NCBI GenBank assembly: GCA_965215505.1
Contig: OZ244065.1
Span: 64,001-128,000, forward strand
From: Capsulimonadaceae bacterium
Lineage (GTDB): Bacteria; Armatimonadota; Armatimonadia; Armatimonadales; Capsulimonadaceae
Length of the DNA stretch: 64,000 bases
Direction of reading: 5' to 3'
The position numbers and the translations under genes were made by a program. Position 1 is the first letter of the stretch; every line of letters starts with the position of its first letter. This document shows positions 1 through 15,600 of the stretch, piece after piece. The notes beneath the pieces were generated by a model. The model was not told the origin of the DNA, made no database searches, and worked only from the letters and a program-made list of their open reading frames with translations.

Positions 1-745
1 TACTGTAGTACATGGCGGCCAGCCGCGAGAGCTGGGCGTTATGGGCCGCCACCTGGGCGCTGACCACGCCGGCGGGGCCGCCGCCCGCCCCGGCGAGATA
101 CGGCAGGGCCTGGAGCGTCCCTTCGAACTCGATCTCCGTCCACCCGAAGGTCTCGTCCGGCAGGGGGGAGGAAGGCTCGGTCCCGCGCGCCCCCAGGACC
201 ACCTGACCGGTCCGGTCGCGCAGGGCCATCGGCACCCCCCAGGCGTGCAGCATGCGGCTGAGATAGGCGAAGTTCGTCTCGCCGTGCTGGACGCTGAGGG
301 TGATCGGGATGTCAAGGTCTGCGGCCTGGTCTATCTTGATCAGGGGGTCGGACTTCGCGATGTGTTCGGCGATCTCCAGCAGGGTGGTGGCCTGGAAGGT
401 GCGGTAGCGCGGGATGAGGTCGGCGCGCTTGGTGAAGGAGACGCAGGAAAGAAGCAGGGAAGACGTGGAGGCGTTCCGCCGCCCGCGCACGTCCTCGATG
501 TAGCCGCGGAAGCCGTTAAAATGCTCCGCCAGGTCGTTGTCCTTCCACTGGATGTCGATCGGGCAGTTGAGGAGCTTGCCGGCCACGAAAGCCGTCTGCC
601 GGTCCTCGTACCGGCTGCCCTCCTGCCACTTCAACGTCAGCTCGGCGCGCGAGTGGTCGTAGAGGGGCCGCGAGATCACCACCTCGGTCAGCAGGTGCCG
701 ACTCGACAACTCCTCCGCGCCGACGATCTGGATCTGAAAAGCCAT
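1..745 (-). CDS. vgrG: VgrG / phage late control D (gp27-like hub) spike protein, N-terminal part; runs off the window edge
   Basis: Not in the ORF track; translated by hand from ATG at 745 (GGAGG 9 nt upstream), open to base 1: MAFQIQIVGAEELSSRHLLTEVVISRPLYDHSRAELTL...FRGYIEDVRG...IPRYRTFQATTLLEIAEHI...VQHGETNFAYLSRMLHAWG. These match the VgrG/GPD motifs R-x-F-Q-x-x-T and V-Q-Y-x-E-T-D-F-x-F-L-x-R. Confidence 0.8.
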   Translation of the reverse strand, partial: MAFQIQIVGAEELSSRHLLTEVVISRPLYDHSRAELTLKWQEGSRYEDRQTAFVAGKLLNCPIDIQWKDNDLAEHFNGFRGYIEDVRGRRNASTSSLLLSCVSFTKRADLIPRYRTFQATTLLEIAEHIAKSDPLIKIDQAADLDIPITLSVQHGETNFAYLSRMLHAWGVPMALRDRTGQVVLGARGTEPSSPLPDETFGWTEIEFEGTLQALPYLAGAGGGPAGVVSAQVAAHNAQLSRLAAMYYS

Positions 746-775
746 AGTGTAGTGCCTCCGGGCGGTCGGCGACGC

Positions 776-3460
776 CTAGCGCGTCGTCGCCAGGTGCCCG
801 ACGTTCGACGTCAGGGAAAAGCTCTGTGCCGCTCGTGGGTAGGCGTGCTGCGCGCCGTAAGTCACGGTGTAATCGTGTGTCCCGCTGGGGAAGCGGTAGG
901 AGTGGTTCAGAATCACCTCCTCGCTCACGGTGGTCCCTGGTGCCAGCGTGATGAACTGGCGCGGGCCGGGGTCGGCGGGGCGCTGGGACCGATGCCCGGT
1001 GAACGGGAGGAGCTGGCCGTCCGCCCGGATCTGGAACACGTCATCCCCGATCTTGCCGCTCGCGCACGCGCTGATCTTGTCGAGGAACACGGGATGTCCC
1101 GAGACGTTGGCGAACGTCAGCACGGCATGAACGTCTTTGCCCTGGGGCGTGACGGCAAGCCCGACGGTCGCCGGGATGGTCACGAGCGTCGGGGCCAGCG
1201 TCGTGGTCTGGCCGCTCTCGCCACTGGAACGGCCCCCCACCTTGCTCTGAACGCGGTAGTGATAGAGGCCGCCTGGAGTAACGGTCGTGTCTGAAAAAAA
1301 GTTGTTGCGCGTTGACTGGGGCCATTTCCCCCCGCCGGAACCGCCGCTGCGGTACAGGAGGTACACGGCGCCGTTCGGCACGCTGTCCCAATGCACGTTG
1401 ATCTGGGTCGGCCCGGCCGGCTGGGCCACCAGCCCCGTCGGGGTGGGGGGCGGCAGAACGGGCACCTTGACCGCCGCGACGGGGGGCAGAGGCGGCGTCG
1501 GCGTCGGCGGCCTGTCGCTCGTCGTCGGCGGCGATGTCGGAGCCGGGCGGGGCGTGACGGGTGGCTGTGGCGGCACAATCACCGGGGGGGTCACGGCGGC
1601 CGCCGTCCTGCCGGATGACGCCGCTGACCCTGATGCCCCCGCGCTCGTGGCCGCCGCTGCCGCCTGGGCCTGCTTCCTCTTGTCCGCCTCGTCTTGCCTT
1701 GACTTCGCCCGCGCCTCGGCCCTCGCCGCCGCCGCGATCTGCTCCGGAGTCAGCGTCAGCGTCTCGGGGAACGAGAGCGCATCGGGGAAGGTGAAGGCCC
1801 CCTTCTGGCGTCTCACGGGCAGGGACACGCCGGAGTCATTGCTCTTCTGCTGCAAGGCGGTCGCGCTCAGGATGAGAGTTTCGGTCTTCCCCTGCGGGAC
1901 CTGATCCGTGACATCCAGCTTGACGGGTTCATAGGCGTTGTGGCGGTCCCGGTAGACGGGGCAGATGCGCGTGTGCTGTTGGCCGTCGAGCAGATAGTTG
2001 ACCGTCAGGAACTTGATGTCCTTTCCCCGCAGGCCGCCGAGGTCGCCGATGTTTATCAGCACCAGCGCGCCCGGCGACCGGGCGACTTTGATCGTCTGCT
2101 GGACCTTCCATTCGTCGCGCAGGCCGGCGACTTTGGTGATGTTCAGGTAGGCGGCGTCGGACATCGCGGGGAAGGTGTAGCTGCTGAACTCCGGCTCTTT
2201 GCCCGCCTTAGGCGCGAGGCTGAGCTGGTAGCGCTGGTGGGCGCGGCCCGGCCAGCTCCAGCCGATGGGCCAGCGGTATCCATAAAGGCGGGCCGGCCCC
2301 TTGAAGACGAGCTGGCTGCCGTTGAAGGACCCGACGATCGGCTGCTGACCGGCGAGCGGCGTGTTGTCCTCGTCCAGAAGTGTCATCGTCGGGTCCAGGT
2401 CCCGCAGGTCCACGCCGTCCGGGAGCTGCCCGGCCTCCAGGCCTTCGAAGGCGGGCGTCACCACGATCACCGGATGCTTTTCGGAGGGGACGCCCCAGAC
2501 CAGCCAGAATAGGAACAGCAGGATGCCGAGCAGGGCCACCCAGTCGCGCCCCATGCGGAGCCAGGGGACGTAGCGGACGCGGACCGGGCGGGCCAGGGCG
2601 AGCGGGGTGCTGACGCTGCCGGCGGCTTGGGCCGCGCCGCGCACGGTGGCGTAGTAGGAGCCGCGGTGGGCGGGGGGCGGCAGCAGGCACTGCCAGACGC
2701 CCGGAGTCCGCGCCGTGAGGGCCTGCTGGATGTCGCCGACGGTTTCGGCGTCCCGTTCCAGGGCGTCCTTGGTCGGCGCGCGCAGGATGGTCATCCCGAC
2801 GGTGGGGGGCAAAAAACTCTTGTTGGCGAGCCGGACGGCGAAGCGCGCCTCGCGCCGCCACGGGCGGGTGACGACGAAGGGGGGGACTGCGGTGATCTGG
2901 AGGTCGCTTTCGGTCGGCAGTCCGACCCAGCGCAGGGGTAGGTCCTGGACGATCTCGCCGGGGTCGCCGGTGCGGCGCGGGTCGAAGCAGGTCAGGACGA
3001 AGCCGAAGGCCTGCGTCTTCCGCTTCTCGCCGGTAGGGGGCGGCACGAAGACCACCTCGAACGATGCTTCCTCGCCCGGCTGGAGCAGGATGCCGCCCTC
3101 GCGCTGCGGGGTGCCGCCGAGTGGCGGGCGGCGGATGTAGAAGGCCGGGTTCAGGTCGGTCACGGTCAGGTCGAAACGGTACGCTATCGGCTCGGGGTTG
3201 CCCACATGGATGGTTTCGACCTTGCCGGGCCAGACCAGGTCGCGGTCGGTAATGCGCGACTGCTTCGAGTCCGGCGTCTCCTCGGCGTCCGCCGAAGCCA
3301 GCGGCTTGCCCGGCGTGAAGGACACCGAGGCCTCCCCGCCGGATTCCATGTCCTCGTCCGCCCCGCCGCCCCCGCCGCCGGAACCGTAGCCGCCCGCAAA
3401 GCCTGAGAGGCCCGACAGACCGGGGATGAAGCCCAGGAAACTTAGAAATCGTCCAAACAT
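776..3460 (-). CDS. Large bitopic membrane protein: Ig-like N-terminal domains, TM helix, extracytoplasmic beta domains, Pro-rich linker, FN3 domain, C-terminal M35-peptidase-prodomain-like domain
   Basis: 894-aa ORF. TM segment WVALLGILLFLFWLVWGV; FN3 signature PTPTGLVAQPAGPTQINVHWDSVPNGAVYLLYRS...DTTVTPGGLYHYRVQS; C-terminus LTFANVSGHPVFL...DVFQIRADGQLLPFTG...FITLAPGTTVSEEVILNHSYRF. Sits in the operon directly upstream of vgrG. Confidence 0.7.
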   Translation of the reverse strand: MFGRFLSFLGFIPGLSGLSGFAGGYGSGGGGGGADEDMESGGEASVSFTPGKPLASADAEETPDSKQSRITDRDLVWPGKVETIHVGNPEPIAYRFDLTVTDLNPAFYIRRPPLGGTPQREGGILLQPGEEASFEVVFVPPPTGEKRKTQAFGFVLTCFDPRRTGDPGEIVQDLPLRWVGLPTESDLQITAVPPFVVTRPWRREARFAVRLANKSFLPPTVGMTILRAPTKDALERDAETVGDIQQALTARTPGVWQCLLPPPAHRGSYYATVRGAAQAAGSVSTPLALARPVRVRYVPWLRMGRDWVALLGILLFLFWLVWGVPSEKHPVIVVTPAFEGLEAGQLPDGVDLRDLDPTMTLLDEDNTPLAGQQPIVGSFNGSQLVFKGPARLYGYRWPIGWSWPGRAHQRYQLSLAPKAGKEPEFSSYTFPAMSDAAYLNITKVAGLRDEWKVQQTIKVARSPGALVLINIGDLGGLRGKDIKFLTVNYLLDGQQHTRICPVYRDRHNAYEPVKLDVTDQVPQGKTETLILSATALQQKSNDSGVSLPVRRQKGAFTFPDALSFPETLTLTPEQIAAAARAEARAKSRQDEADKRKQAQAAAAATSAGASGSAASSGRTAAAVTPPVIVPPQPPVTPRPAPTSPPTTSDRPPTPTPPLPPVAAVKVPVLPPPTPTGLVAQPAGPTQINVHWDSVPNGAVYLLYRSGGSGGGKWPQSTRNNFFSDTTVTPGGLYHYRVQSKVGGRSSGESGQTTTLAPTLVTIPATVGLAVTPQGKDVHAVLTFANVSGHPVFLDKISACASGKIGDDVFQIRADGQLLPFTGHRSQRPADPGPRQFITLAPGTTVSEEVILNHSYRFPSGTHDYTVTYGAQHAYPRAAQSFSLTSNVGHLATTR

Positions 3461-3514
3461 GTGTTGTTTCGTTCCACTCCTTGCGGAGTAAGACTCTCTG
3501 AGATTGGCCGCGCT

Positions 3515-3979
3515 TCAATGCGCCGACGGTCGTTTGACGTGGCTCGGGTTCGGTCGGTTCAAATGGAATTCGACGGTATACGGGATCGTGGAGTGCGGCC
3601 ACGGGTTGATCAGCCGCGTCTCGGTGTGGCCCTGCCACTGGAAGATCAGCCACAGCCGCTCCCCCGGAAACCGCGAGATCGGCGTCAGCCCCTTCGGGTC
3701 TATGGACAGCTTCCCCTGATCGCTCTCCGGCACCGCGCGGTCGCCGATCCCGCCTGTGGAAATAGAGGCGGGGACGAGGGCCTGCGTGCCGTCCGAGTAG
3801 ACCTCGATGGCTTGCAGGTTCACCTGCACGCGCTGGGCCGATGGGGCCGGCTTGACAGGATGCCGCTTGTGGGACAGAGCGCCCAGGACAACGCCGACCA
3901 GAGCCGCCCCGAGAAAAACGGCGAGCCACTTTGCGAAGAAGCGCGCGGGCCAACATGTGGACGCGAAGAGGGAAGCCAT
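3515..3979 (-). CDS. Small membrane-anchored hypothetical protein
   Basis: 154-aa ORF, N-terminal hydrophobic helix WLAVFLGAALVGVVLGAL, co-oriented within the operon. Confidence 0.6.
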   Translation of the reverse strand: MASLFASTCWPARFFAKWLAVFLGAALVGVVLGALSHKRHPVKPAPSAQRVQVNLQAIEVYSDGTQALVPASISTGGIGDRAVPESDQGKLSIDPKGLTPISRFPGERLWLIFQWQGHTETRLINPWPHSTIPYTVEFHLNRPNPSHVKRPSAH

Positions 3980-4054
3980 AAGCTCTGGTTCATCCTGAGA
4001 GGTGGTCGGTATGCCTCAGACAAGGCCTTGTGAGGTCGTTTGCGCCACATGAGA

Positions 4055-5140
4055 CTATTTGCGCCACATGAACCCGGTGCCGCTGCGCCGGGGCGTCTCG
4101 ACCGCCGCCGGGTCCTCCTCCCGGCTCGCCGCCGGCGCGGCGCGCGGGTCGCGTGCCGCCATCACGGTCTCGTGGTCGAGCTGGCGGCGCTCCGGGGCCG
4201 GGGCGGCGGCCTCCAGGGCGGCCAGGAGGGGCGGATAAAGCTGGAGCAGCCGGTCCAGGCACTCGCGGGCCATCAGGAAGGCCTGGCCCATGGTCCACTC
4301 GGCCGTCTCCAAATAGTTCAGTGTGTCTTCCAAATAATCCACCGCCTCCTGGTAGATCCGCAGGCCGGGCGAGGGCAGGGCCAGAAGCTGGGCGCGCTGT
4401 GCGGCCAGGATGCCCCCGACGATGCCCATGTAGGCGCGCGGGGAGGCGTTCCCGTCCGCGACACCTGCCAGCGGTCCGAGTGACCCGGCCAGGGCGGTCG
4501 CGGCGGCGTAGCGCTGGACGGCCCCCGACGAGTGCTTGACCAGCAGGTCCAAAGCCTGCCGTGCGAGCGACCGCAGCTCCTGCTGAGAGCGCCACTGGCC
4601 GGCGTGGCTGGAAAGGAACATCGTCTCGGGGATAAAAGACCGGTCCAGGCTGAGGCCGGTCGTCGTCTTCTCGAACTGCGCGATCTGGACCCAGTCCACC
4701 GTGTCGTCGCCGTTGTCCGCGGCCAGACGGTAGGAGGCACGGATACCCCGGCACCCGAGCAGGCCGGTATCCACGGAGGAATGCAGGTGCGGCTCGGGGG
4801 CGCGCTCGGTAAGCGACGCGCCGACGTAGAGCGGCACGATGTTCGCCCGCGCCTCGACGGTGCCGCGCAGGGCGAGAGCCGGGTCGTCCGGAATTTCGAT
4901 GATCTGCCCCTGCCGCCCGACGGCCAGGCAGCCGCGCACGGCGACCGAGTACAGCCGGTCGCCCTCCGGACTGGGGCGGCTGACGGCGTCGTCGGCCAGA
5001 TGCAGCAGGCCCGCGACGCGCCCGCGCTGGAGGGTCCACCGCACCAGCTCCTCCAGGTAGAACGTCTCCTGCTTGAACTGTCCGGCCTGCATCAAGCGGA
5101 CGCTGTCCCAGTCCACGGAGACCAGATCGAACTTACGCAT
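4055..5140 (-). CDS. tssK: TssK-like baseplate-to-membrane connector
   Basis: N-terminal VDWDSVRLMQAGQFKQETFY (TssK V-x-W-x-x-G-M...H-F-x-Q), VRGCLAVGRQGQIIEIP, LDRSFIPETMFLSSH (D-x-x-Y/F-I-P-P-x-x-x-V-S-S-H). Start taken at ATG 5140 (GAGG upstream); the ORF track starts at 5167. Confidence 0.7.
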   Translation of the reverse strand: MRKFDLVSVDWDSVRLMQAGQFKQETFYLEELVRWTLQRGRVAGLLHLADDAVSRPSPEGDRLYSVAVRGCLAVGRQGQIIEIPDDPALALRGTVEARANIVPLYVGASLTERAPEPHLHSSVDTGLLGCRGIRASYRLAADNGDDTVDWVQIAQFEKTTTGLSLDRSFIPETMFLSSHAGQWRSQQELRSLARQALDLLVKHSSGAVQRYAAATALAGSLGPLAGVADGNASPRAYMGIVGGILAAQRAQLLALPSPGLRIYQEAVDYLEDTLNYLETAEWTMGQAFLMARECLDRLLQLYPPLLAALEAAAPAPERRQLDHETVMAARDPRAAPAASREEDPAAVETPRRSGTGFMWRK

Positions 5141-5213
5141 CAGGGGGAACCTCTTGAGAAATGTCACTCAAAGAAATATACCCTATTTCGCGCCGGACTG
5201 AGAACACCCCGGC

Positions 5214-6827
5214 TCAGAGCGTGATCGGGTCGCCCGCCGGCCCGCCCCCGGCCGCCTTCGCCCCGAGCCGCGCCCCGGACTGGAACTCGTGCTGGAGGTA
5301 GGAGGGGCGGTCCAGGCGGGCCGCCGACTCGCGCCACAAGACCTCGACGCGGCAGCAGACCGGCAGGAACAGGCGCAGCAGCAGGGCCAGCGTCGCGCGC
5401 GCTTTCTCCGCGCCCTCGTCCTCATCCGACAGCGGCATTTCCAGGGTCACCCCAGGGTACTGGAGCAGGGCGGCCCCGCCCAGTACCGCCGTGCTGCCGA
5501 GCTGCGCCAGGAGTGTAGCGGGCCGGCTGAAGGCGGGCGCATAGCGCCGGGGGTGGACGACGACATCTGGGTGGATCAGCCGCCGCGCGGCGGTCTCGAA
5601 CAGGACGAACGGGTCGGCGGCCTCGCGCCGCCAGGCGACCAGCGACCAGAGCTGCGTCCGCTCCGTCTCGTCGAGCGCGCTCAGGTCCAGCGCGGCGTCG
5701 TCCGGGCCGCCCACGCCGAGAACGCCGCCCCCGTCTGCCCACTCTTCCAGGCGCGAGGCCAGCAGGGTGCGGGCGTTGCGCCCGCCGGTCACGGACAGGA
5801 ACCAGCCGTCCAGCCGGCCCGTCCCCGCCGCCCTCTGGTCGGAGATGCGGCCGTGTATCCAGCCGATCCCGGCGAGCGAATCAATAACGGCGGTCGCCAG
5901 CAGCGCCTCGGTCGTGACGACCTCCATCAGCTCGCGGACGATGAGCGCGCGCTCCCGCTCCGTCTCATGGGAGAGGGCCGTCAGCAGGGCGCGCAGGAGC
6001 GCGCGCTGCCCGTCCGCCTCGGCGGGGGTCAGCTCGGTCCACATGCCGTCTTCCGCCGCCATCTCGGGCAGCGCGCCGAACAGCAGCAATGCCCAGCGTT
6101 TCAGTGTCTCCGTGGCGGCGGGGCGGTCGCGGTCTTCCAGGCCTTCGATGCCGCGCGGCGGCAGCTTGTCGGCCATCAGGGGCCAGGCCAGCCGGCAGGC
6201 GGCGCGCAGGTCCGGGTCGGCGGCCCGCCGCGTCGCCGTCGCGATCAGGCCCGGTCGGCGGGCGGGGTCGGACTCGAATAAGACCCCGAGAACGTCGTCG
6301 GCCCCGACCTCCATCATGACGCGCTCTTCCGGCGTCGGCGTCCGCATCAGCTCGGGGTAGGAGGCGCAGACCTGCTGGGCCAGGTCTTCCAGTGGGGACT
6401 GCGGCCGGGCAGGCGGCGGGGCGCCCGGCAGCCCCGCCAGCAGGGGCGGCACGAAATGGGCCAGCCGACCCACGGTGCGGGTCACGCGCCGCTCCCCCCC
6501 GGCCTCGCCTTCCGGCACGAAATAATCCACGGTGTCCGCGCGCACGCTGACGGCGAGGCGCGGGCGGACCTCGGCCGGGATGACGTAGTGGACCGTCAGG
6601 CGCTCACTGAGCGGGTCATGGGAGGGGCCGGGCGGGTCCTGCGCGCGGACCTCGGGGTCGGCGAAGTGGCCGAGTTCGGGCAGCATCCGCAGGTTCTCTT
6701 CGGGGATGCCCAGGGCGTGAAGCGTCCTCCAAGCTTCCAGCAGGTAGCTCGGCCAGTTCAGCCCACTGAGCTGCGGGAATACGACCGTCCGTGCCGCCTT
6801 GTCCGGCGTCTCTTCGGCCTGGGTCAT
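5214..6827 (-). CDS. TssG-like baseplate wedge subunit with extended N-terminus (537 aa)
   Basis: Likely start MTQAEETP at 6827, overlapping the upstream stop (ATGA). C-terminal QLGSTAVLGG...YPGVTLEMP...LLLRLFLPVCCRVEV...ARLG resembles TssG; positioned between tssF and tssK. Confidence 0.6.
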   Translation of the reverse strand: MTQAEETPDKAARTVVFPQLSGLNWPSYLLEAWRTLHALGIPEENLRMLPELGHFADPEVRAQDPPGPSHDPLSERLTVHYVIPAEVRPRLAVSVRADTVDYFVPEGEAGGERRVTRTVGRLAHFVPPLLAGLPGAPPPARPQSPLEDLAQQVCASYPELMRTPTPEERVMMEVGADDVLGVLFESDPARRPGLIATATRRAADPDLRAACRLAWPLMADKLPPRGIEGLEDRDRPAATETLKRWALLLFGALPEMAAEDGMWTELTPAEADGQRALLRALLTALSHETERERALIVRELMEVVTTEALLATAVIDSLAGIGWIHGRISDQRAAGTGRLDGWFLSVTGGRNARTLLASRLEEWADGGGVLGVGGPDDAALDLSALDETERTQLWSLVAWRREAADPFVLFETAARRLIHPDVVVHPRRYAPAFSRPATLLAQLGSTAVLGGAALLQYPGVTLEMPLSDEDEGAEKARATLALLLRLFLPVCCRVEVLWRESAARLDRPSYLQHEFQSGARLGAKAAGGGPAGDPITL

Positions 6828-8470
6828 GCCGCCACCCGGCCTTCGATGCGGAACGTGGAAAGCACGAAATACTGCGACAAGATGGAGGCGAGATAGTTCG
6901 CCATGTCCGTCAGCAGGAAGTCCGGGACCTCGGGAGGCGCGGCCCGCTCGAAGGTGATCCGCAGGCTCTGGACCAGCGGCACAGAGTCCGGGGAAGGTAC
7001 GCCTTCTCCTTCGAAGGTGGACTCGCGCGCAAGCACGGAGGGCCAGAGGTAGGAGCGCCAGTGGATGCCGCCCGTCTCGGGGTCGTTGACGATCTCGCGC
7101 ACGGCGGATCGGAATCGGAGCATCTCGCCCAGGTCGCCCCGCCGCTGCCGGATGATCTCCCACAGGTCCCCCTCGGTCAGCAGCGGCGGGCGCAGGACGC
7201 TGTGATACCAGGCCGTCCGCGCCCACTCGGCGCGGTCGGACGGCCCGCCCACCGTGGCCCCGCCCAGGGCGAGGTAAGGGATGCTGAACCGCAGCGGCGC
7301 TTTCTCCAGCGAGGTCGGCGTGTCCAGCATCCCCATCCGGCCCCGGCCCCAGGAGCCGTAATAGATTTTGACCTGCGTGACGCCCGCCTGCACCTGCGGG
7401 AACTGCACCTGTACGTCCGGCTCGGTCGCCGCCGGGTCCTGGCTCGGCAGGCGGACGAGCGAGGAGGGCACGTCCAGCCCGTCGTGCCGGACCGTGGCGG
7501 CGAAGATGCCGGGAACGCCGGTCATCCGCAGGGCGTGTTCCTGGCCGACGTGCGGAAAGGGGGGATAAAAGATGTTGTCCGACAGGCCCGTCTGGACCAC
7601 CGGGACCGCATTCAGACTGACCCAGGCGGGGCCGGAACGGCGCGCACCCAGCGCGCGCAGGGCGGCTGCGGCGTGTCCCTGGGGGGAGGGAACGACTCCC
7701 ACGAACCGGAAGCCCGACTCCAGGCCCCGGTCGAGTCGTTCCGAGGCCAGCAGCGGGTGGGGCGGCGCGTTGCCCGCGCCCATCCCCAGCCGGACCATTT
7801 TGCGCCCGTAAGGGTGAAAAGGCGGCAGCCACAGGTCGAGCTGGCGCTGGTTCATGCGCGCCGTCTGCATCTCGCGCTCGAAGGCCATGTAGCCGTCGTA
7901 GCGCGTGAAGGACGCCGGGCGGAACCCGGCACCGGGAGTCAGGACCCACCAGGAGGCGCGTGCGAGCGCGGCCAGGGCTTCCTCGGGGACGCCGAGGAAT
8001 GCGAGCTGGCCGCGCTCCAGGGTGATCTCGACCGGCTCGGTTCCGGGCTGGTCCACGTCAATGACGGCCAGACAGTTGCCCCCGGACCACTGCACGGCCG
8101 CATCGCGCAGGGCCGTCGGCTGAATCCAGCCCGCGCCGCAGGCCATCCAAGGGGAGCCGGCGGAGTCGGTGAACGTCAGGCCCTCCGTGACGTCGGTCGC
8201 ACGGGCGGGGGGGCGCACGGGGACGGCCAGAGTTTGTGCCGGGAACTTCCAGTCACCGAGCGGAAAAAACTGTTCCTCCAGGTGGGCGATGGACGACCGT
8301 TCGGCCTGAACGTAGTGTTCCTGGACTGCCCCCTTCCAGCCGGCGAGCATGGCGAGGAAGGGGGCGTAGTGTGTCTCGTAGTCTGCCACGACACGGTGGC
8401 GCATCTCGCGCGGGATGCGCGCGAGGATGTCGCGGACGTTGGGCGGGAGTTCGGTTTCGTCGTCAGCCAT
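6824..8470 (-). CDS. tssF: TssF / gp6-like baseplate wedge subunit
   Basis: 548 aa. N-terminal helix then HLEEQFFPLGDWKFPAQTLA (TssF L-L-x-x-L-x-P...P-A-x-T); SLNAVPVVQ (L-N-C-x-P-V-V-N); ATVGG...RPPLLTEGDL (T-x-G-G...I-V-T-x-x-D). Confidence 0.65.
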   Translation of the reverse strand: MADDETELPPNVRDILARIPREMRHRVVADYETHYAPFLAMLAGWKGAVQEHYVQAERSSIAHLEEQFFPLGDWKFPAQTLAVPVRPPARATDVTEGLTFTDSAGSPWMACGAGWIQPTALRDAAVQWSGGNCLAVIDVDQPGTEPVEITLERGQLAFLGVPEEALAALARASWWVLTPGAGFRPASFTRYDGYMAFEREMQTARMNQRQLDLWLPPFHPYGRKMVRLGMGAGNAPPHPLLASERLDRGLESGFRFVGVVPSPQGHAAAALRALGARRSGPAWVSLNAVPVVQTGLSDNIFYPPFPHVGQEHALRMTGVPGIFAATVRHDGLDVPSSLVRLPSQDPAATEPDVQVQFPQVQAGVTQVKIYYGSWGRGRMGMLDTPTSLEKAPLRFSIPYLALGGATVGGPSDRAEWARTAWYHSVLRPPLLTEGDLWEIIRQRRGDLGEMLRFRSAVREIVNDPETGGIHWRSYLWPSVLARESTFEGEGVPSPDSVPLVQSLRITFERAAPPEVPDFLLTDMANYLASILSQYFVLSTFRIEGRVAA

Positions 8471-8520
8471 GGGTGTCTTGGGGCGGAGGGCTGCTCCGGC
8501 GGGGTGTGGGCCGACGTGGA

Positions 8521-8550
8521 ACGGGAGGGAGCGGTGACGCCCCCCCCCGT
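8521..8550 (-). promoter_or_regulatory. RNA hairpin downstream of the tube gene
   Basis: Minus-strand ACGGGGGGGGGCG-TCAC-CGCTCCCTCCCGT forms 13 bp including two G.U pairs; the same positions are A.C mismatches on the plus strand. Confidence 0.55.
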
Positions 8551-8573
8551 CCGAGTGATCTGCAAGATCCTGG

Positions 8574-9017
8574 TTACGCTGCGGGCGCTTCCGGCTCGCC
8601 GGCCTGCACCGAAAGGATGTTGTCGCCGGTGTAGTCCACGTTGTTCTGGATCATCACGCCCCGGATGACCACCTCGACGAAGTTGCCCTGGTCGGTGCCG
8701 TTCGTGGAACCCTCCGGGTACTCCTTCTCGATGTAGGAATGGACGTAGGACTTTTGCAATGTCCACATCTTCTTGACCGTGTGAGAGCGGTCCAGAGTCT
8801 GAAGCTCGACCGTCTTGAATCGCTTCGGCCCCTGCGGCGCGAGCGCCCACAGCGCGATCATGGTGTCATGGTCCAGGGGGAGCGTGACGGTGAACTGCAT
8901 CACCGGGACCTGGACCGCCTCGCGGACCTTCTTGTCTTCATCGAGGTCGTGGAGTATCTCCACCCTGGCGTCGAAGACGCGGTTGATCTTGGTTCCTTGA
9001 ATGGTTAGATTCGGCAT
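8574..9017 (-). CDS. hcp: Hcp/TssD-like inner tube protein (147 aa)
   Basis: Start MPNLTIQG at 9017 with GAAAGGA RBS. Pattern QFTVTLPLDHDTMIALWA...FKTVELQTLDRSHTVKKMWTLQKSYVHSYIE matches the Hcp/TssD/tail-tube fold; size and position directly after the sheath fit. Confidence 0.7.
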   Translation of the reverse strand: MPNLTIQGTKINRVFDARVEILHDLDEDKKVREAVQVPVMQFTVTLPLDHDTMIALWALAPQGPKRFKTVELQTLDRSHTVKKMWTLQKSYVHSYIEKEYPEGSTNGTDQGNFVEVVIRGVMIQNNVDYTGDNILSVQAGEPEAPAA

Positions 9018-9078
9018 CTCGAACTGTCCTTTCATCGGGAATGCACGGGGCACCACTGCGGCGCGAGGTGCTGCGGTC

Positions 9079-9103
9079 ACCGGGGCGGCTCTCCCGCCCC
9101 GGT
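9079..9103. promoter_or_regulatory. GC-rich hairpin between sheath and tube genes
   Basis: ACCGGGGCGG-CTCTC-CCGCCCCGGT, perfect 10-bp stem, no U tract. Confidence 0.5.
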
Positions 9104-9120
9104 CGAGTCAGACCATGTTG

Positions 9121-11670
9121 TTAGAAGCTGATTCCGAACTCGTCTACCAGTCCCTGCTCGAAGTAGAGGACTATCTTGAAGTTGTTTCCCCCTTCGCGCT
9201 GCACCTTAAACTCCTGTCCGGTCTTGAGTGCGCTCGGGAACGAGTTGACGAGCTTCTCGGGGTCGTACCACTTGGTCCACTTCAGGATGTAGTTCAGGTG
9301 GTCCGACAGCATCCCGACCGCCTTCTCGTTGTCCTCGGGCATGGAGCCGCCGTAGCCCAGCTCCCAGGCCGCGCGCAGGAGCCGCTTGAGGTAGACCTCC
9401 TGGCGGAACAAGTGCAGGTGCCGGTAGGACTGCTCGCCATCCTCCTTGTGGAGCCGGCGCAGTGTGCGCGGCACCGAGAGGAACGGCGACCGGCCGGAGA
9501 CGTGGGTGAAGGCCAGAAACGGCATGCTGCTGCTCAGAAGCTCGCTCATCAGGCCGTCGTTCAGGAAGTGGTCGGTGGGCAGGTCGGTCTCGCCAAGGTA
9601 GGGGTTGATGGACAGGTCAATGCCGACGCCGGGCAGGTCGGACCGCATGGAGGTCACTTCCTTCTTGGCGCGCTGGAGCTTCCGGCGCAGATAGTCCGGC
9701 ACGTCGTTCGCCATCAGCCGCCCCGCCGCGACGTAGCAGGACCGGACGGTCAGCTCGGGCACGTCCACGCCGACCTCGATCCCGCCCTCGGCCGTCTTGC
9801 CGGTGACCAGCTTGCCGTCGGGCGGCATGATCGTGAAGTCGGGCAGGCACAGGATGCCGCAGTCGCCCGACTCGCGCTCCACCACGGCGTCTATGGCGTA
9901 GGCGTCGTTGAGGTTCTGCAAATACTCGCGCCGCGCCCGCCCCGCCTGGACGCGCTCCTCGGGCGAGAAGAGCACCTGGAAGCCGTACTGGTAGCCCCAA
10001 TCCATCAGCGGCAGCATCTCGTCTACATAGGTCGTCTTGCCGTAAGTGTCGGCGTCCGGCATGACCGCGTCCTGGGCGGCACGGATCGACTCCAGGAGGG
10101 GGTCATCCAGCATGATCGAGTTCTGCTTGCGCTTCGCGGGCCGCTTTTTCTTGAACTCGGCGACGTTCGGCACGATCACGAACGAGATGGCGTCGCGGAA
10201 CTGGTTGTTGGCCTGGGCGTTGGCCCCTTCGAAGAACCGCTTCAGCTCGTCGGGCCGCGACAGGAAGAGGTGGGGCAGGTCTTCGTTCGCGACGATCAGC
10301 TCCGGCTTCATGCTGTCCGGCAGGCGCACGTCGGAGGGGAATTCGTTGAACAGCAGATAGACGCCCATGATCGTCTCGAACAGCGGCGTGACCGTCTGGA
10401 GGAACGACTCGACGGCATTGCTGTAGACCCCGAGGAACATGTCGTGGTAGTGTTCCACGTCCCGGATGTCCGGGTTCAGCAGGGCCAGCTCTTTGGGGTT
10501 CTGCAAGACGGTCGCGACGAGGTTGCCCATGAGCGGGGCGATCATGCCCCGGTCAATCATCTTGTCCATGAATTTGCCGACCGCGATGGGGAACCGCTTC
10601 TCGTGGGGGACCAGGGCGATGTCCTGGCCGGCGACCAGCTTGCCCTGCTCGCGGATCTTGTCCAGCGCGGTGTCCAGGGTCCGCACCGTGATGGCCGTGC
10701 CCGTGGAGCCGCCCTCGGACTTGACCAGTTCGCCGCCCTCCTCGCCCTTGCCTTCCAGCAGCTTCTTTTCGCCCTCCAAGAGCTTCTTGCCCTTCTTGCC
10801 GTCTGCGGCGGGGGCTTCCAGCGCGGGCAGGGTGGGCATGGAGCGCGGCGAGGCGATCAGCGACCGGTCCTTGCCGAACTCGATCTGGTACACGTTGGGG
10901 TCGATCGGGCCGCCGCCGGGCGACTGGCGTTTCAGCTCGTTTGCGGTCTGTTCCAGCCCGTAGACGACGGTGGGCAGGACGCGGACGGTGTCTTCCAAGG
11001 CACCCTGGAAGTCGTCGGCGGCCACCTGATAGGCTTCGAGGGCACGGGCGGTGTCCTTGGAGGCGGGGTTGCGCTTGACTTCCAGCATCAGGCGGTCGTT
11101 CTTGACCTGGACGTCCTCGGCGATCTTCCGCATCAAGGTCCGCTGGTTTTTTGGCTTGAAGGCGAACAGGGAGGCGTCCACGTCCACGCGGAAGGTGGAG
11201 ACGTCCTGCCGGACCCGCTTCTTGATCAGGTCGCGCAGGCAGCGGATGTACGGGTGGTCGGCGCTGACGCGGATCTTCTTCCAGCCCGGCCCACCTTCCA
11301 GCGAGAACTCGATCTGCGGCGGGCCGGGCGCTTCCTCAACGGGGGACGCTTCTTCTCCTTCCGCGGCACCCGCCTGGGTCATCTGCGGGCCGCGGACGCG
11401 GTAGTAGAAGCCGGGCTGGAACTTGTCGAGGAACTCGGTGAAGGAGGTGACCGTCAGGTTCTCGCGCACCAGCGACAGGAACTGCTCCTCCGACATCTCC
11501 TCGACGCGGGAGAGCAGGCTGCCCAGCGAGGGGGTGTACTCCCGGTCGCGCTCCAGGGCCTCGGGGTCGAGGTACTCGTCGAGGTTGACCTTGGCGAAAA
11601 GGATCGCGCGGTTGGTCTTCCCCAACATGCTGCGGTTCGCTTCCATGATCGTCTCATTGGTGATTGGCAC
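9121..11670 (-). CDS. Divergent contractile sheath-like protein (849 aa, single polypeptide)
   Basis: GTG start with AAAGGAG RBS. The C-terminal third carries sheath-like elements: LCLPDFT, VRSCYVAAGRL, SVPRTL...YRHLHLFRQEVYLKRLL (cf. GARTL...WRYVNVRR...YIERS) and terminal beta strands. Lies immediately upstream of the tube gene. Confidence 0.6.
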   Translation of the reverse strand: MPITNETIMEANRSMLGKTNRAILFAKVNLDEYLDPEALERDREYTPSLGSLLSRVEEMSEEQFLSLVRENLTVTSFTEFLDKFQPGFYYRVRGPQMTQAGAAEGEEASPVEEAPGPPQIEFSLEGGPGWKKIRVSADHPYIRCLRDLIKKRVRQDVSTFRVDVDASLFAFKPKNQRTLMRKIAEDVQVKNDRLMLEVKRNPASKDTARALEAYQVAADDFQGALEDTVRVLPTVVYGLEQTANELKRQSPGGGPIDPNVYQIEFGKDRSLIASPRSMPTLPALEAPAADGKKGKKLLEGEKKLLEGKGEEGGELVKSEGGSTGTAITVRTLDTALDKIREQGKLVAGQDIALVPHEKRFPIAVGKFMDKMIDRGMIAPLMGNLVATVLQNPKELALLNPDIRDVEHYHDMFLGVYSNAVESFLQTVTPLFETIMGVYLLFNEFPSDVRLPDSMKPELIVANEDLPHLFLSRPDELKRFFEGANAQANNQFRDAISFVIVPNVAEFKKKRPAKRKQNSIMLDDPLLESIRAAQDAVMPDADTYGKTTYVDEMLPLMDWGYQYGFQVLFSPEERVQAGRARREYLQNLNDAYAIDAVVERESGDCGILCLPDFTIMPPDGKLVTGKTAEGGIEVGVDVPELTVRSCYVAAGRLMANDVPDYLRRKLQRAKKEVTSMRSDLPGVGIDLSINPYLGETDLPTDHFLNDGLMSELLSSSMPFLAFTHVSGRSPFLSVPRTLRRLHKEDGEQSYRHLHLFRQEVYLKRLLRAAWELGYGGSMPEDNEKAVGMLSDHLNYILKWTKWYDPEKLVNSFPSALKTGQEFKVQREGGNNFKIVLYFEQGLVDEFGISF

Positions 11671-11846
11671 GGTCTCGTCTCCTTTGAGTTATCGCGGCGG
11701 GGCAAAAGCGGAATGGAAAGGCTGAATTGAAAGGCTAAACAGAAGTGCGCGAACAAAAAGAGTGTCGGGCCACCCTCACGACAATCATTCCCGTTTCCGG
11801 GCCGCCTGACACCTAACGAACGGGCGGATTTCGCGGCTGGTTTGAG

Positions 11847-12503
11847 TCACGCGGCGGAGCGGGCCACGAGCAGAAGCCACAGCCAGTAGCCAAGGCCCAG
11901 GCCGCCCCCCAGCGCGACCGCCAGCAGGACATAAGCCGGCCAGCCGGTGCGCGGGCGCAGGCGCAGAGTCGCCCGGTCCGGGAACGCTTTCTCCTCCTCC
12001 CAGGCCGGCCAGAGGGAGTGGGAGGCCAGCGACTTGTCGGGCGTCAGCCGGTGCCCGCGCCAGTCGCACAGGTCGAAGCAGCAGGGCCGCTCGGCCTTGT
12101 CAAGGATGAGCGCGACCACCCGGTCAATGCGGTCCTCGGCGTCCGCGTAGGTGTACTCAATGTTCCCGGCGACAAGCGTCGGCGGCCCGACTCGGTACAG
12201 GTCGCGCCGCAGCACCAAGGACAGCTCCGCGTAGGCCTGCCCCTCGCTCGTGAGCTGGGAGGCGAGGGAGGCGCTGCGCGGCAGGAACCTTTCGCCGAAC
12301 CAGAAGTGCCGCGAGATCCGCTCCAGGGCCTGCCGGGACCGGCGGACATCTTCATGGTTGATGCAGTCCTGGTATAGCTCCGCGAAGGTCGCGTGGAGCG
12401 GGTAGTCGCGCAGCCAGAACGGGCGGATGTCTGAAAGTTCCGGGATCGCGACCTTCACATCCACCGTACCCGTCCTGCCCGATTGTCCTGTCGAAATGCT
12501 CAT
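11847..12503 (-). CDS. Membrane-anchored protein with two ubiquitin-like (YukD/EsaB-type) domains
   Basis: Internal duplication HFWFGERFLPRSASLASQ...ELSLVLRR and DLCDWRGHRLTPDKSLASHSL...TLRLRPR, resembling ubiquitin LIFAGKQLEDGRTLSDY...TLHLVLR; C-terminal TM helix. Start uncertain (12503 or 12530). Confidence 0.5.
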   Translation of the reverse strand: MSISTGQSGRTGTVDVKVAIPELSDIRPFWLRDYPLHATFAELYQDCINHEDVRRSRQALERISRHFWFGERFLPRSASLASQLTSEGQAYAELSLVLRRDLYRVGPPTLVAGNIEYTYADAEDRIDRVVALILDKAERPCCFDLCDWRGHRLTPDKSLASHSLWPAWEEEKAFPDRATLRLRPRTGWPAYVLLAVALGGGLGLGYWLWLLLVARSAA

Positions 12504-12629
12504 AACGGTTACCGGACACCCATTCGCCACCCGCCGACGGGATTCCTGCCCTCACTTTTTTCGGCCCGCCTGTAGGACATTCGGGCATCGGCGTTGAATA
12601 GGACGGGCAGCGACCGCGAGAGGATCAAC

Positions 12630-15600
12630 ATGACACGGAAAAAGATGCAAGGCGGAAGAGCCTGCCGGGCACGTCGAGGGTGGATGAGTCGGGGGGCTGC
12701 GCTGCTGGCGGCCATGCTGGGGGCTACGGGCGGCGCGCAGGCGCAGCAGGCGGCGAAGACCGTGCCGCACCCGACGGATCTGTCCCAGGGGAACACGCTC
12801 TACCTCGTCGGCTACGCCCACCTGGACACGCAGTGGCGCTGGTCGTACCCGCAGGTGATCCGGGAGTTCATCCCCAACACCATGCACAACAACTTCCGGC
12901 TGTTCGACCAGTACCCCGACTACGTCTTCAACTTCAGCGGGTCGCGCCGCTATGAGATGATGAAGGAGTACTATCCGGACGACTATCTGAAAGTGAAGCA
13001 GTACGTCAAAGCCGGCAAGTGGTTTCCCTGCGGCTCGTCGGTGGATGAGGGCGACGCCAACGTGCCCTCCGCCGAGTCCCTGGTGCGCCACACCCTCTAC
13101 GGCAACCATTTCTTCCGCCGCGAGTTCGGCGTCGCCAGCCAGGAGTTCATGCTCCCGGACTGCTTCGGATTCCCTTACGCCCTGCCGACAGTGCTCGCCC
13201 ACTGCGGCATCCAGGGCTTCTCCACCCAGAAGCTCACCTGGGGGTCGGCGATCGGCATCCCCTTCCCGGTCGGCGTCTGGCAGGGGCCGGACGGCAAAGG
13301 CGTCGTGGCGGCCCTGGACCCCGGCAGCTACGCCGCCGGGTTCAACGAGGACCTGAGCCGGAACACGAGCTGGCTGGCGCGCATCCAGAAGACCGGCGCG
13401 TCGTCCGGCGCCTTCGTGGACTACCACTACTACGGCACGGGCGACCGGGGCGGGGCACCCGATGAGCGGTCCGTCGGCTGGATGGAGAAGAGCATCGTCG
13501 GGCCGGGACAGGTCAAAGTGGTCTCCGCCAGGGCCGACGAGCTGGTCAAGACGCTGACGCCGGCTCAGGTCGCCAGGATGCCGCGCTACAAGGGCGAGCT
13601 TCTGCTGACCCAGCACTCGGCGGGGTCCATCACGTCGGAAGCCTACATGAAGCGGTGGAACCGCAAGAACGAGCTGCTGGCCGACGCGGCGGAGCGCGCC
13701 TCGGTCGCCGCCTCCTGGCTTGGCGGGGCGAGTTACCCCACCAAGCGGCTGTATGATGCCTGGGACCTGGTGCTGGGTTCGCAGATGCACGACATGCTGC
13801 CGGGGACCAGCCTCCCCATCGCCTATGACTACTGCTGGAACGATGAGCTTCTGGCCCTGAACCAGTTCGGGGCGGTGACACAGGACGCGGTCGGCTCGGT
13901 CGCGTCCGCCCTGGACACGCGGGCGAAGGGCGTCGCGGTCGTCGTCTATAACCCACTGGCGACGGCCCGAGAAGACGTGGCCGAGGCGACCCTGACTTTC
14001 CCAAGCGCGGCCCCGGCACGGATACAGGTCTACGGCCCGAGCGGCCTGCCCGTGCCGACCCAGACTCTGGCGCGAGAGGGGAACACGGCCAGAATCCTGT
14101 TCCTGGCCCGCGTCCCTTCCACCGGCTTCGCGGCCTTCGACGCACGGCCCTTCACATCCAAGGCGGGGGCGGGCGGCCTCAAAGTCGGCCCCAACTCGCT
14201 TGAAAACGCCCGGTTCCGGGTGACGCTCAACGTGGACGGCGATATCGCCTCGCTCTACGACAAAGTGAATCACAAGGAGACGCTGGCGAACCCCGCCCGA
14301 CTGGCCTTCCAGTACGAGAATCCCAGCGCGTTTCCTGCCTGGAACATGGACTGGGCGGACGCCCAGAAAGCTCCGCGCGGCTATGTGAACGGCCCGGCCC
14401 AGGTGCGGGTCGTCGAGTCCGGCCCGGTGCGGGTCGCCCTGGAAGTGACGCGGACGACTGACGGCTCGCGGTTCGTGCAAACGATCCGGCTGGCGTCCGG
14501 CGGGGCAGGGGACCGCGTCGAGGTGGCGAACAAGATAGACTGGCAGACCCGGCAGACGGCCCTCAAAGCGTCCTTTCCGCTTACGACCCCGAACCCAAAG
14601 GCGACTTACGACCTGCAAGTCGGGGCCATCGAGCGGGGCAACAACGACCCCAAGAAGTACGAGGTTCCGCAGCACCAGTGGTTCGACCTGACTGCCGTGG
14701 ACGGCAGATACGGCGTCGCGGTCCTCAACGACTCCAAATTCGGATCGGACAAGCCCGACGACGGCACCGTGCGTCTGACTCTCTTGTACACCCCCGGTGT
14801 CCGGGGCGGCTACCAGGATCAGGCGACGCAGGACACCGGGCGGCACGACATCCTCTACGCGCTGGCCCCCCATGTGGGCGATTGGCGGCAGGCCAATGTC
14901 CCCTGGACGGCCAAGCGGCTCAACCAGCCTTTAATGACTTTCCAAACGCCTTCCCACGCCGGGGCGCTGGGCAAGACGCTCTCGCTGGCCTCCGTCAGCA
15001 CCCCGCAGGTCGAGATCTCGGCCGTGAAGAAGGCCGAGGACAGCGGCGAGATCATCGTCCGCCTGCGGGAGCTGCGCGGGAAACCTGCATCAGGCGTACA
15101 GGTCAGGATGGCCGCCCCGATCCTCTCGGCCCGCGAGGTGAACGGGCAGGAGGCACGGCTCGGCCCGGCGACCGTAAGGAACGGCGTCCTGACCACCGAC
15201 ATCGGCGGCTTCGGGCTGCGCGCGTTCGCGCTGAAGCTGGGCCGCCCGTCGGCCCACTCCGCCCCGATCCAGAGCCGGCCCGTCGCGCTCGCCTATGACA
15301 TAGACGCGGTCAGCTTCACCCGCGCGCCCGCCGACGGTTCCTTCGACGCATCGGGCCGGACATTCCCCGGCGAGGCGATGCCCGCCACGGTCGTCGCCGA
15401 CGGGATCGTGTTCAAGACCGGCCCGACGGCGGACGGCGCGAAGAACGCGCTGTCCTGCCGGGGGCAGACGATCGCGCTGCCCGCCGGGCAGAGGCGGGTG
15501 TACCTGTTGGCTGCCTCCTCGGACGGCGACATCCCCGCCCGCTTCACCGTCGGCGGCGAGACCTATCCGGCCACGGTGCAGGACTGGGGCGGCTTCATCG

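Follow-up and report, generated by a model that had tools for sequence, protein, structure and literature searches.

A candidate type VI-like secretion system with a single-chain sheath in a Capsulimonadaceae bacterium

The window analyzed here is a stretch of 64,000 nucleotides (G000:C1:64001-128000) from the 6.18-Mb, single-contig genome of a Capsulimonadaceae bacterium (contig OZ244065.1; 96% complete by marker genes), and it begins with a cluster of nine genes that probably encodes a lineage-specific type VI-like secretion system (Table 1). The nine open reading frames (ORFs), at 1-12530, are co-oriented on the minus strand, high in third-position GC content and closely packed, with intergenic gaps of 30-176 nt and a single overlap, of 4 nt (ATGA), where the 548-aa gene meets the 537-aa gene; the cluster extends leftwards past the window. 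All nine are open and single-copy, and no paralogue of any of them occurs elsewhere in the genome. An initial annotation, made from the sequence alone, had described a packed and mostly hypothetical set of genes in this place, and both descriptions held: the ORFs were found there, and scans of the nine proteins against Pfam, NCBIfam, PADLOC and PHROGs gave nothing above cut-off except VgrG, which alone passed in Pfam (PADLOC gave no match, and PHROGs chance-level matches only). The ORF at 1-745, previously uncalled, is the N-terminus of this VgrG. Sequence profiles of the sheath, tube, TssF, TssK and TssG-position families returned nothing meaningful from the Protein Data Bank (PDB). Two gene starts were placed by alignment, that of the tube with 13 homologues and that of the TssK-like protein with its homologues, locus L015 left out. 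A search of sequencing runs gave 20 entries with the stretch or part of it, with no RNA among those listed, and is silent on expression.

Table 1 Genes of the cluster, its upstream neighbor and the cargo module to its left. Coordinates are those of the window unless prefixed by G000:C1 (genome) or L001 (locus L001).
Feature	Position	Strand	Setting	Basis
227-aa tail-anchored membrane protein (predicted)	11847-12530	-	first gene of conserved block	ORF, transmembrane helix
849-aa single-chain contractile sheath protein	9121-11670	-		AlphaFold2 model, Foldseek, VIA
147-aa putative inner tube protein (Hcp/gp19-like)	8574-9017	-		weak family matches; ORF to 9080, start probably 9017
548-aa TssF-type baseplate wedge protein	6824-8470	-		AlphaFold2 model, Foldseek, VIA
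537-aa protein, TssG position	5214-6827	-		position and overlap with TssF stop codon only
361-aa TssK-like baseplate protein	4055-5140	-		Pfam matches of family; ORF to 5167, start probably 5140
154-aa membrane protein	3515-3979	-		ORF, transmembrane helix, conservation
894-aa bitopic membrane protein	776-3460	-		transmembrane helix, profile matches
VgrG, N-terminal 248 aa (of 647 aa)	2-745, rest at G000:C1:62803-64000	-		Phage_GPD
GH38 alpha-mannosidase	12594-17006	+	divergent upstream neighbor	domain matches
DcrB/DUF1795 (Eag) chaperone	L001 18337-18786		left of window	E 3.9e-23
HEAT-repeat protein	L001 17576-18340		between chaperone and effector	domain match
882-aa prePAAR/PAAR effector with C-terminal Ntox28	L001 14907-17555			domain and motif matches
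Pentapeptide-repeat protein	L001 14328-14894			E 2.9e-30
Two tandem MORN-like small proteins	L001 12541-13420		downstream of pentapeptide gene	

Structurally, the 849-aa protein was shown by its AlphaFold2 model (predicted local distance difference test, pLDDT, 73.5; predicted template modeling score, pTM, 0.73) to have a contractile-sheath fold, as the initial annotation had proposed. Foldseek placed VipA/VipB, the Vibrio type VI secretion system (T6SS) sheath, first (E 1.6e-4, probability 1.00), followed by sheaths of contractile injection systems (CIS) and phages, and structural alignment with VIA gave Z-scores of 17-19.6 over 300-350 aligned residues for ~40 sheath entries, the top row being the cytoplasmic CIS of Streptomyces coelicolor (Z 19.6; PDB 9gtp, 8bl4). 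At the sequence level, each of the 71 homologue clusters is nameless or labeled ‘hypothetical’, with no Pfam domain in any of them, a profile of 31 homologues found no sequence match among solved structures, and the window copy found none in Pfam. The single-chain sheaths of PVC, AFP and the Streptomyces CIS align across model residues 1-840 in VIA, and VipB, through its residues 61-474, covers no more than 401-839 of the model, with the first ~135 residues of the model perhaps supplying the share that TssB has in T6SS. A helical insert occupies residues ~140-440, including a disordered stretch at 251-329, and presumably sits where T6SS sheaths would carry their specific outer domain. With PF05943 (VipB/TssC) unmatched in the whole genome, the two-chain TssB plus TssC sheath by which T6SS is recognized was not found, and the earlier description of one 849-aa chain with no separate TssB stands.

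In the baseplate, the 548-aa protein is a TssF on the evidence of its AlphaFold2 model (pLDDT 79.9). Its top Foldseek matches were chains H and I of 6n38, the TssF subunits of an E. coli TssK-TssF-TssG assembly (E 2.6e-14), ahead of the Streptomyces CIS (E 4.3e-9) and of P1, PVC and T4 gp6 (2e-6 or worse), and VIA aligned it to TssF with a Z of 12.6 over 428 residues spanning 34-548, versus Z ≤10.0 over ~300 residues for gp6-type proteins. The match to TssF thus runs over all domains, with an E-value five orders of magnitude ahead of the CIS and phage gp6-type proteins, and agrees with the TssF call made initially; a further suggestion, that this TssF resembles the Bacteroidota version, gave way to the E. 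coli T6SS-i protein as best structural match. The Pfam TssF family, PF05947, matched neither the protein nor the genome, and among the 86 clusters of the 548-aa family the sole precomputed Pfam match was PF19335, in one cluster.

The 361-aa protein is accepted as TssK-like from family-level evidence, in keeping with its first identification. Pfam TssK (PF05936) matches 12 of 20 diverse family members (best E 2.2e-5), the window copy being unmatched, and one of 62 homologue clusters has a precomputed PF05936 match; against the NCBIfam TssK model, the window copy reached E 0.018, far below cut-off. In the ESM Atlas, its top language-model neighbors were Bacteroidota TssK clusters (score 0.95, 208 of 256 features in common).

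Between these two genes lies the one for the 537-aa protein, whose position suggests that it may be TssG. Its ATGA start overlaps the TssF stop codon in the window, and in most of 12 relatives a candidate start, 3 nt ahead of where TssF ends, would produce the same 4-nt overlap, which is not an independent count because the script chose the candidate start nearest that end. Its family found no support in Pfam, the PDB or other family resources, the ESM Atlas gave unnamed clusters only, and hhalign of this family against the TssF family gave a probability of 0.1. Complex prediction of TssF with residues 1-450 of the 537-aa protein scored 0.01 and gave no answer, speaking neither for nor against.

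The 147-aa protein, encoded directly after the sheath in every related locus, is a putative Hcp/gp19-like tube. Matches to Phage_T4_gp19 were found in 10 of 13 family members (best E 9.6e-4) and to TssD (PF17642) in three (best E 0.022), all of them weak, so that the tube call proposed at the outset gains weak backing. In a Chthonomonadales relative, two extra tube paralogues (L025 13294-14461; phmmer E 1e-38 to 1e-40 against the window tube) stand between the tube gene and VgrG.

VgrG itself, as initially called, is well matched. Its ORF runs 1198 nt beyond the left edge of the window, for a total of 647 aa, with Phage_GPD in the N-terminal part (E 6.6e-10) and Phage_base_V in the C-terminal part (E 1.5e-10), and the latter part finds T6SS VgrG chains among PDB entries (9jg8_G, E 1.1e-5). 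The left flank beyond it holds a T6SS-style cargo module and is free of capsid or terminase genes, which would have spoken for a prophage. The 882-aa protein of this module is, by motif and domain content, a member of the prePAAR/Eag effector class: it carries an exact AARxxDxxxH at residues 6-15, just ahead of the first of two transmembrane regions (23-78 and 204-232), a weak PAAR match (E 5.4e-4; 22.8 bits versus a cut-off of 27) and a C-terminal Ntox28 domain (E 1.1e-34). Both the AARxxDxxxH prePAAR motif and the class of effectors served by Eag chaperones have been described for T6SS, in Proteobacteria (PMC7773334). The HEAT-repeat protein may be a conserved accessory or adaptor; a second HEAT-repeat protein after VgrG is encoded in a distant Chthonomonadales locus (L025 16666-17652). 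The MORN-like proteins may be spare immunity genes, and a 194-aa ORF of no known family lies between them and the pentapeptide-repeat gene.

Three further proteins of the block are predicted to be membrane-bound. The 227-aa protein has a cytoplasmic N-terminal part of ~195 aa and one C-terminal transmembrane helix (199-223), a tail-anchored arrangement, and may contain ubiquitin-like domains: a profile of 12 homologues weakly matched a ubiquitin-derived Affilin chain (E 0.01), and one distant homologue of the five scanned matched YukD (E 0.043). The order proposed at first, two ubiquitin-like domains and then a transmembrane helix, agrees with the predicted helix and is faintly indicated for the domains by these two matches; the window copy had no match in Pfam, NCBIfam, PHROGs or PADLOC. 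The 154-aa protein, likewise unmatched in these four collections, consists of one N-terminal transmembrane helix (~12-38) and a domain of ~115 aa. The 894-aa protein has a conserved N-terminal domain of ~300 aa and one transmembrane helix (303-327), and its N-terminus probably lies inside the cell because arginines precede the helix; the outer region of ~570 aa comprises a proline-rich linker, a fibronectin type III (FN3) domain and, at the C-terminus, a beta domain. The profile built from 11 homologues matched FN3 chains (1tdq, E 8.5e-9) and, through the C-terminal domain, residues 14-146 of 2x3b (E 7.6e-5), with no Pfam match to the protein at E ≤0.1.

For these three proteins, the T6SS-iii of Bacteroidota offers an analogy. 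There, TssN docks the baseplate, its EccD-like cytoplasmic domain binding TssK, and TssQ, TssO and TssP are single-pass membrane proteins, as described in PMC10781749. By analogy with TssN, we infer that the 227-aa protein would dock TssK, and the 154-aa and 894-aa proteins would span the envelope.

Evolutionarily, the block is conserved well beyond the window. Of 22 related loci, nine agree with the window in all nine genes and their order, and a tenth does so for the first eight; the 894-aa gene is kept in 10 of the 22, as is the 154-aa gene, always between the TssK-like and 894-aa genes, and a homologue of the 227-aa protein is present in 17, with three loci ending at contig edges. In nine distant loci (35-72% sheath identity), VgrG comes after the sheath and tube genes. 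Seven of these carry the 227-aa gene in front of the sheath as well; the other two, L032 and L034, do not, and in them TssF and its TssG-position partner lie further along. The flanks are not common to the relatives, except the two closest, and since the same gene order recurs while the flanks differ, the block is more than a chance assembly. The conserved start of the block across relatives, together with the divergent GH38 gene, also bears out that the 5′ end of the operon is inside the window. That GH38 alpha-mannosidase (1470 aa, secreted-looking, with extra CHB_HEX_C, Big_5 and Laminin_G_3 domains) is found in the same place in the two closest relatives only.

Taxonomically, the related loci are labeled Armatimonadales, Capsulimonadaceae, Chthonomonadales, Abditibacteriales, ‘bacterium HR15’ and, once, Janthinobacterium, mostly Armatimonadota groups, as expected from the initial assignment of the window to a probable Armatimonadota genome. 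The Janthinobacterium case (L020, 83% sheath identity) is a metagenome-assembled genome labeled Janthinobacterium lividum whose neighbors in identity are all labeled Armatimonadota, and a binning or labeling error is the likeliest explanation. The distribution is patchy: of the genomes sampled, 13 of 23 in the same genus and one of 16 in the neighboring family carry the sheath gene, and across the Armatimonadota the sheath family is present in 18 of 401, which belong to 5 of 207 genera. Canonical VipB/TssC was found in none of the 401.

T6SS are still sorted into four types in a 2025 paper (PMC12469244), and the block shares traits with several of these and with CIS, at ~10-15% sequence identity between its sheath and TssF and their counterparts in T6SS i-iv and extracellular CIS (eCIS). 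Like T6SS-iii, it has a TssK-like protein whose nearest language-model neighbors come from Bacteroidota, a tube weakly matching the TssD family PF17642, no TssJLM found in the genome (TssJ not searched), and single-pass protein(s) with an N-terminal transmembrane helix, as are TssQ, TssO and TssP; the putative ubiquitin-like domains of the 227-aa protein are a possible parallel to the EccD-like domain of TssN. Unlike T6SS-iii, which combines TssB/C, TssD, TssE/F/G/K, ClpV and VgrG with a TssNQOPR membrane complex, its sheath is one chain rather than TssB plus TssC, no TssN (PF17555), TssE or ClpV was found with it, the 227-aa protein has one C-terminal transmembrane helix versus five, and the gene order differs. 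With the T6SS-i of Proteobacteria it shares the TssF best matched by the E. coli structure, a VgrG matching T6SS VgrG chains, an Eag chaperone and prePAAR effector module as described in Proteobacteria and the tail-anchored topology of TssL, seen here in the 227-aa protein. It departs from T6SS-i in having no Pfam or NCBIfam match for TssC, TssF, TssK, TssM, TssL, TssA or ClpV, as well as a single-chain sheath, no TssE found and a shorter TssK (361 aa).

In the T6SS-iv of Amoebophilus, the sheath is likewise one chain, ClpV and TssJLM are not known, and the system is cell-anchored despite an eCIS-like ancestry; T6SS-iv and eCIS-like clusters retain gp25 along with tape-measure-like and other Afp-like genes, and have sheaths that match phage-sheath families. 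Compared with this general description, the block is alike in its single-chain sheath and in that no ClpV or TssJLM was found, and unlike in that it has no gp25, tape-measure-like or phage-sheath-family matches. The Streptomyces coelicolor CIS (9gtp, 8bl4) provides the highest sheath Z (19.6) and the second-best TssF match, whereas the block has TssK-family and VgrG/prePAAR cargo genes and no gp25 was found in it; the lead of this CIS in sheath Z leaves kinship undecided, as the gap to T6SS sheaths is within ~2 units. Because no two-chain sheath, TssE, ClpV or known membrane complex was found, we place the block outside T6SS types i-iv. The initial claim that it fits no standard T6SS or eCIS subtype can thus be put more exactly: sheath, TssF, a TssK-like protein and VgrG are present, and several parts that define the T6SS types were not found.

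Taken together, we read the block as a functional, lineage-specific type VI-like secretion system that is put together within the cell and docks to its envelope, with a probability of roughly 0.7, judged from sequence and structure models. A cell-anchored machine of T6SS type is favored because several lines agree: the folds of the sheath and of TssF, the link to TssK, VgrG, the cargo and the three membrane proteins. An earlier suggestion of a distinct cell-anchored injection system likewise finds support in the T6SS-type parts and the conserved block, the docking itself being inferred.

Several observations weigh against this reading. Structure models cover two of the nine proteins (849-aa and 548-aa), the sheath Z-scores for T6SS and for CIS or phage sheaths are tied within ~2 units, so that the fold leaves the lineage of the sheath undecided, and the tube is identified from weak family matches and TssG from position. 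The universal T6SS components listed in the Methods of PMC10781749 are TssB, C, D, E, F, G, H, I and K, and genome-wide searches with the Pfam models for VipB, TssF and TssK gave no match. Nor did TssM (PF06761), TssL (PF09850) or TssA (PF06812) at E ≤0.1, or TssN (PF17555); the initial remark that no TssJLM or TssNOPR is recognizable thus holds for TssL, TssM and TssN, with TssJ, TssO, TssP, TssQ and TssR not searched by models of their own. For ClpV (TIGR03345), nothing in the genome was above cut-off, with two Clp-type ATPases (1.73 and 5.70 Mb) reaching roughly half of that score. The gp25/TssE family (PF04965) has no match in the block, its only match in the genome is at C1:1050432, and it was absent from four of five other carrier genomes, one of the four being labeled a complete chromosome; a very divergent or fused TssE could have escaped the search. 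We know of no studied contractile system that is without gp25/TssE. The left flank, where the missing parts had been anticipated, yielded the VgrG C-terminus, the weak PAAR domain and the effector, whereas TssE, TssA and ClpV were found neither there nor elsewhere in the genome, save for that one gp25.

The gp25 gene belongs to another tail cluster, as a canonical phage-type sheath gene lies nearby: Phage_sheath_1 at C1:1033785-1034207 (E 3.1e-18) and gp25 at C1:1050432-1050704 (E 1.2e-24) are ~17 kb apart. This separate, canonical contractile-tail cluster of the same genome, which could be an eCIS, a tailocin or a prophage, is ~1 Mb away from the block.

The block could alternatively encode an eCIS or tailocin, that is, a released particle that binds its targets from outside. 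Its single-chain sheath aligns over the whole length to eCIS and phage sheaths, gp19, the family weakly matched by 10 of 13 tube homologues, is used by eCIS tubes, and no ClpV recycling ATPase was found. However, the nine genes have no tape-measure, terminator or cap, tail-fiber, AAA+ ATPase, gp25, lysis, capsid or terminase family match (Pfam, NCBIfam and PHROGs, with gp25 alone among these searched genome-wide), TssK is recognized at the family level, TssF best matches the T6SS form, three membrane proteins are encoded in the block, and the Eag/prePAAR cargo is of a type described for T6SS. These points together, with no tape-measure, terminator, fiber, capsid or lysis gene matched in the block, make a released particle or prophage unlikely. 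A prophage was also rejected from the surroundings, as neither flank has a capsid, terminase or portal match and the flanks differ among relatives.

Another alternative, which we rate as similarly improbable, is that the CIS is cytoplasmic or associated with a membrane and serves the cell internally, for example in cell death, development or stress response, rather than as an interbacterial weapon, on the model of the Streptomyces CIS or the thylakoid-anchored CIS of cyanobacteria. The place of the Streptomyces coelicolor CIS at the top of the sheath alignments (Z 19.6) and second for TssF would suit this idea, as would the patchy distribution, but that lead falls within the tie between T6SS and CIS sheaths, and delivery between cells is suggested by what follows VgrG: a polymorphic prePAAR/PAAR toxin, a chaperone and a likely immunity gene. 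To our knowledge, moreover, a TssK link is not a CIS trait. Least probable is an inactive remnant, a decayed tail-like cluster that lost TssE, ClpV and its membrane complex and no longer fires: core T6SS components were not found and few sampled genomes of the phylum (18 of 401) carry the sheath family, but none of the nine ORFs is broken, at least nine other genomes have the complete block with proteins 45-91% identical, and the sheath family stays full length down to 35% identity, conservation that is not expected of decaying genes.

Mechanistically, the type VI-like secretion system that we propose would work without recognizable TssE, TssA and ClpV. The 849-aa chain would do the job of TssB and TssC together around a tube of the 147-aa Hcp/gp19-like protein, and the baseplate would consist of TssF, the 537-aa partner in the TssG position and TssK. 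As the membrane dock, the 227-aa, 154-aa and 894-aa proteins would stand in for TssJLM or TssNQOPR. The spike would be VgrG capped by the PAAR domain of the 882-aa effector, whose prePAAR-TM-PAAR-Ntox28 chain (TM, transmembrane) the DUF1795/Eag chaperone would hold, and contraction of the sheath would fire VgrG and effector into a neighboring cell, while the pentapeptide-repeat protein would protect the producer.

The sheath also has kin far outside this set of loci. An exhaustive profile search with the sheath family returned 252 representative proteins at E ≤0.001, 139 of them at ≤1e-10, and 47 scanned members of this wider family had no match to a Pfam sheath family. Grouping, which covered the 109 proteins of at least 550 aa among the 148 new ones of the best 150 of the 252, plus two added family members, gave three sheath groups: the Armatimonadota type (9), one of ~650-800 aa (95) and one of ~860-900 aa (7). 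Loci of the large group, sought in metagenomes with an alignment of six closer sequences (L046-L125, e.g., L066 9998-13111, L107 9992-13128 and L053 9989-12637), lie on low-GC contigs (31-46% in nine measured), many of them from gut metagenome assemblies, judging by their names. They encode a sheath-like protein of ~725 aa (E 1e-25 to 1e-36 against the window sheath profile) followed by one or two tube-like proteins, one of which matches TssD at E 0.0012, and are flanked by genes for FHA, Ser/Thr kinase, PP2C and VWA proteins and for LytTR-type regulators, the latter recognized by N-terminal sequence only. This large low-GC group may be a second uncharacterized sheath-tube system. A tblastn search of plasmids with a group-B sheath-like protein gave no match.

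A bolder proposal, to which we give somewhat less than even odds, is that the block represents a fifth class of T6SS, with a one-piece sheath, no gp25/TssE, TssA or ClpV, and an independently evolved, ubiquitin-like, tail-anchored dock that recruits TssK in the manner of TssN in Bacteroidota. If so, its sheath would sit in a large unannotated superfamily, the 252 representative clusters at E ≤0.001, which includes the low-GC sheath-tube loci beside FHA, kinase and PP2C genes, and secretion machines with single-chain sheaths would be far commoner than the four known T6SS types suggest. No description of this kind of system from Armatimonadota turned up in a literature search that had supplements and subscription journals outside its scope, and detection tools based on Pfam or TIGRFAM would miss the block; its tie to the sheath superfamily broadens the search space. 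A system that works without recognizable TssE, TssA, ClpV or a known membrane complex would show the minimal parts of a cell-anchored contractile injector, and its dock, if confirmed, would be a third, independent way of docking a TssK baseplate to the envelope. For the Armatimonadota, since none of the 401 genomes sampled gave a canonical TssC match, the block may be the only T6SS-type weapon of the phylum.

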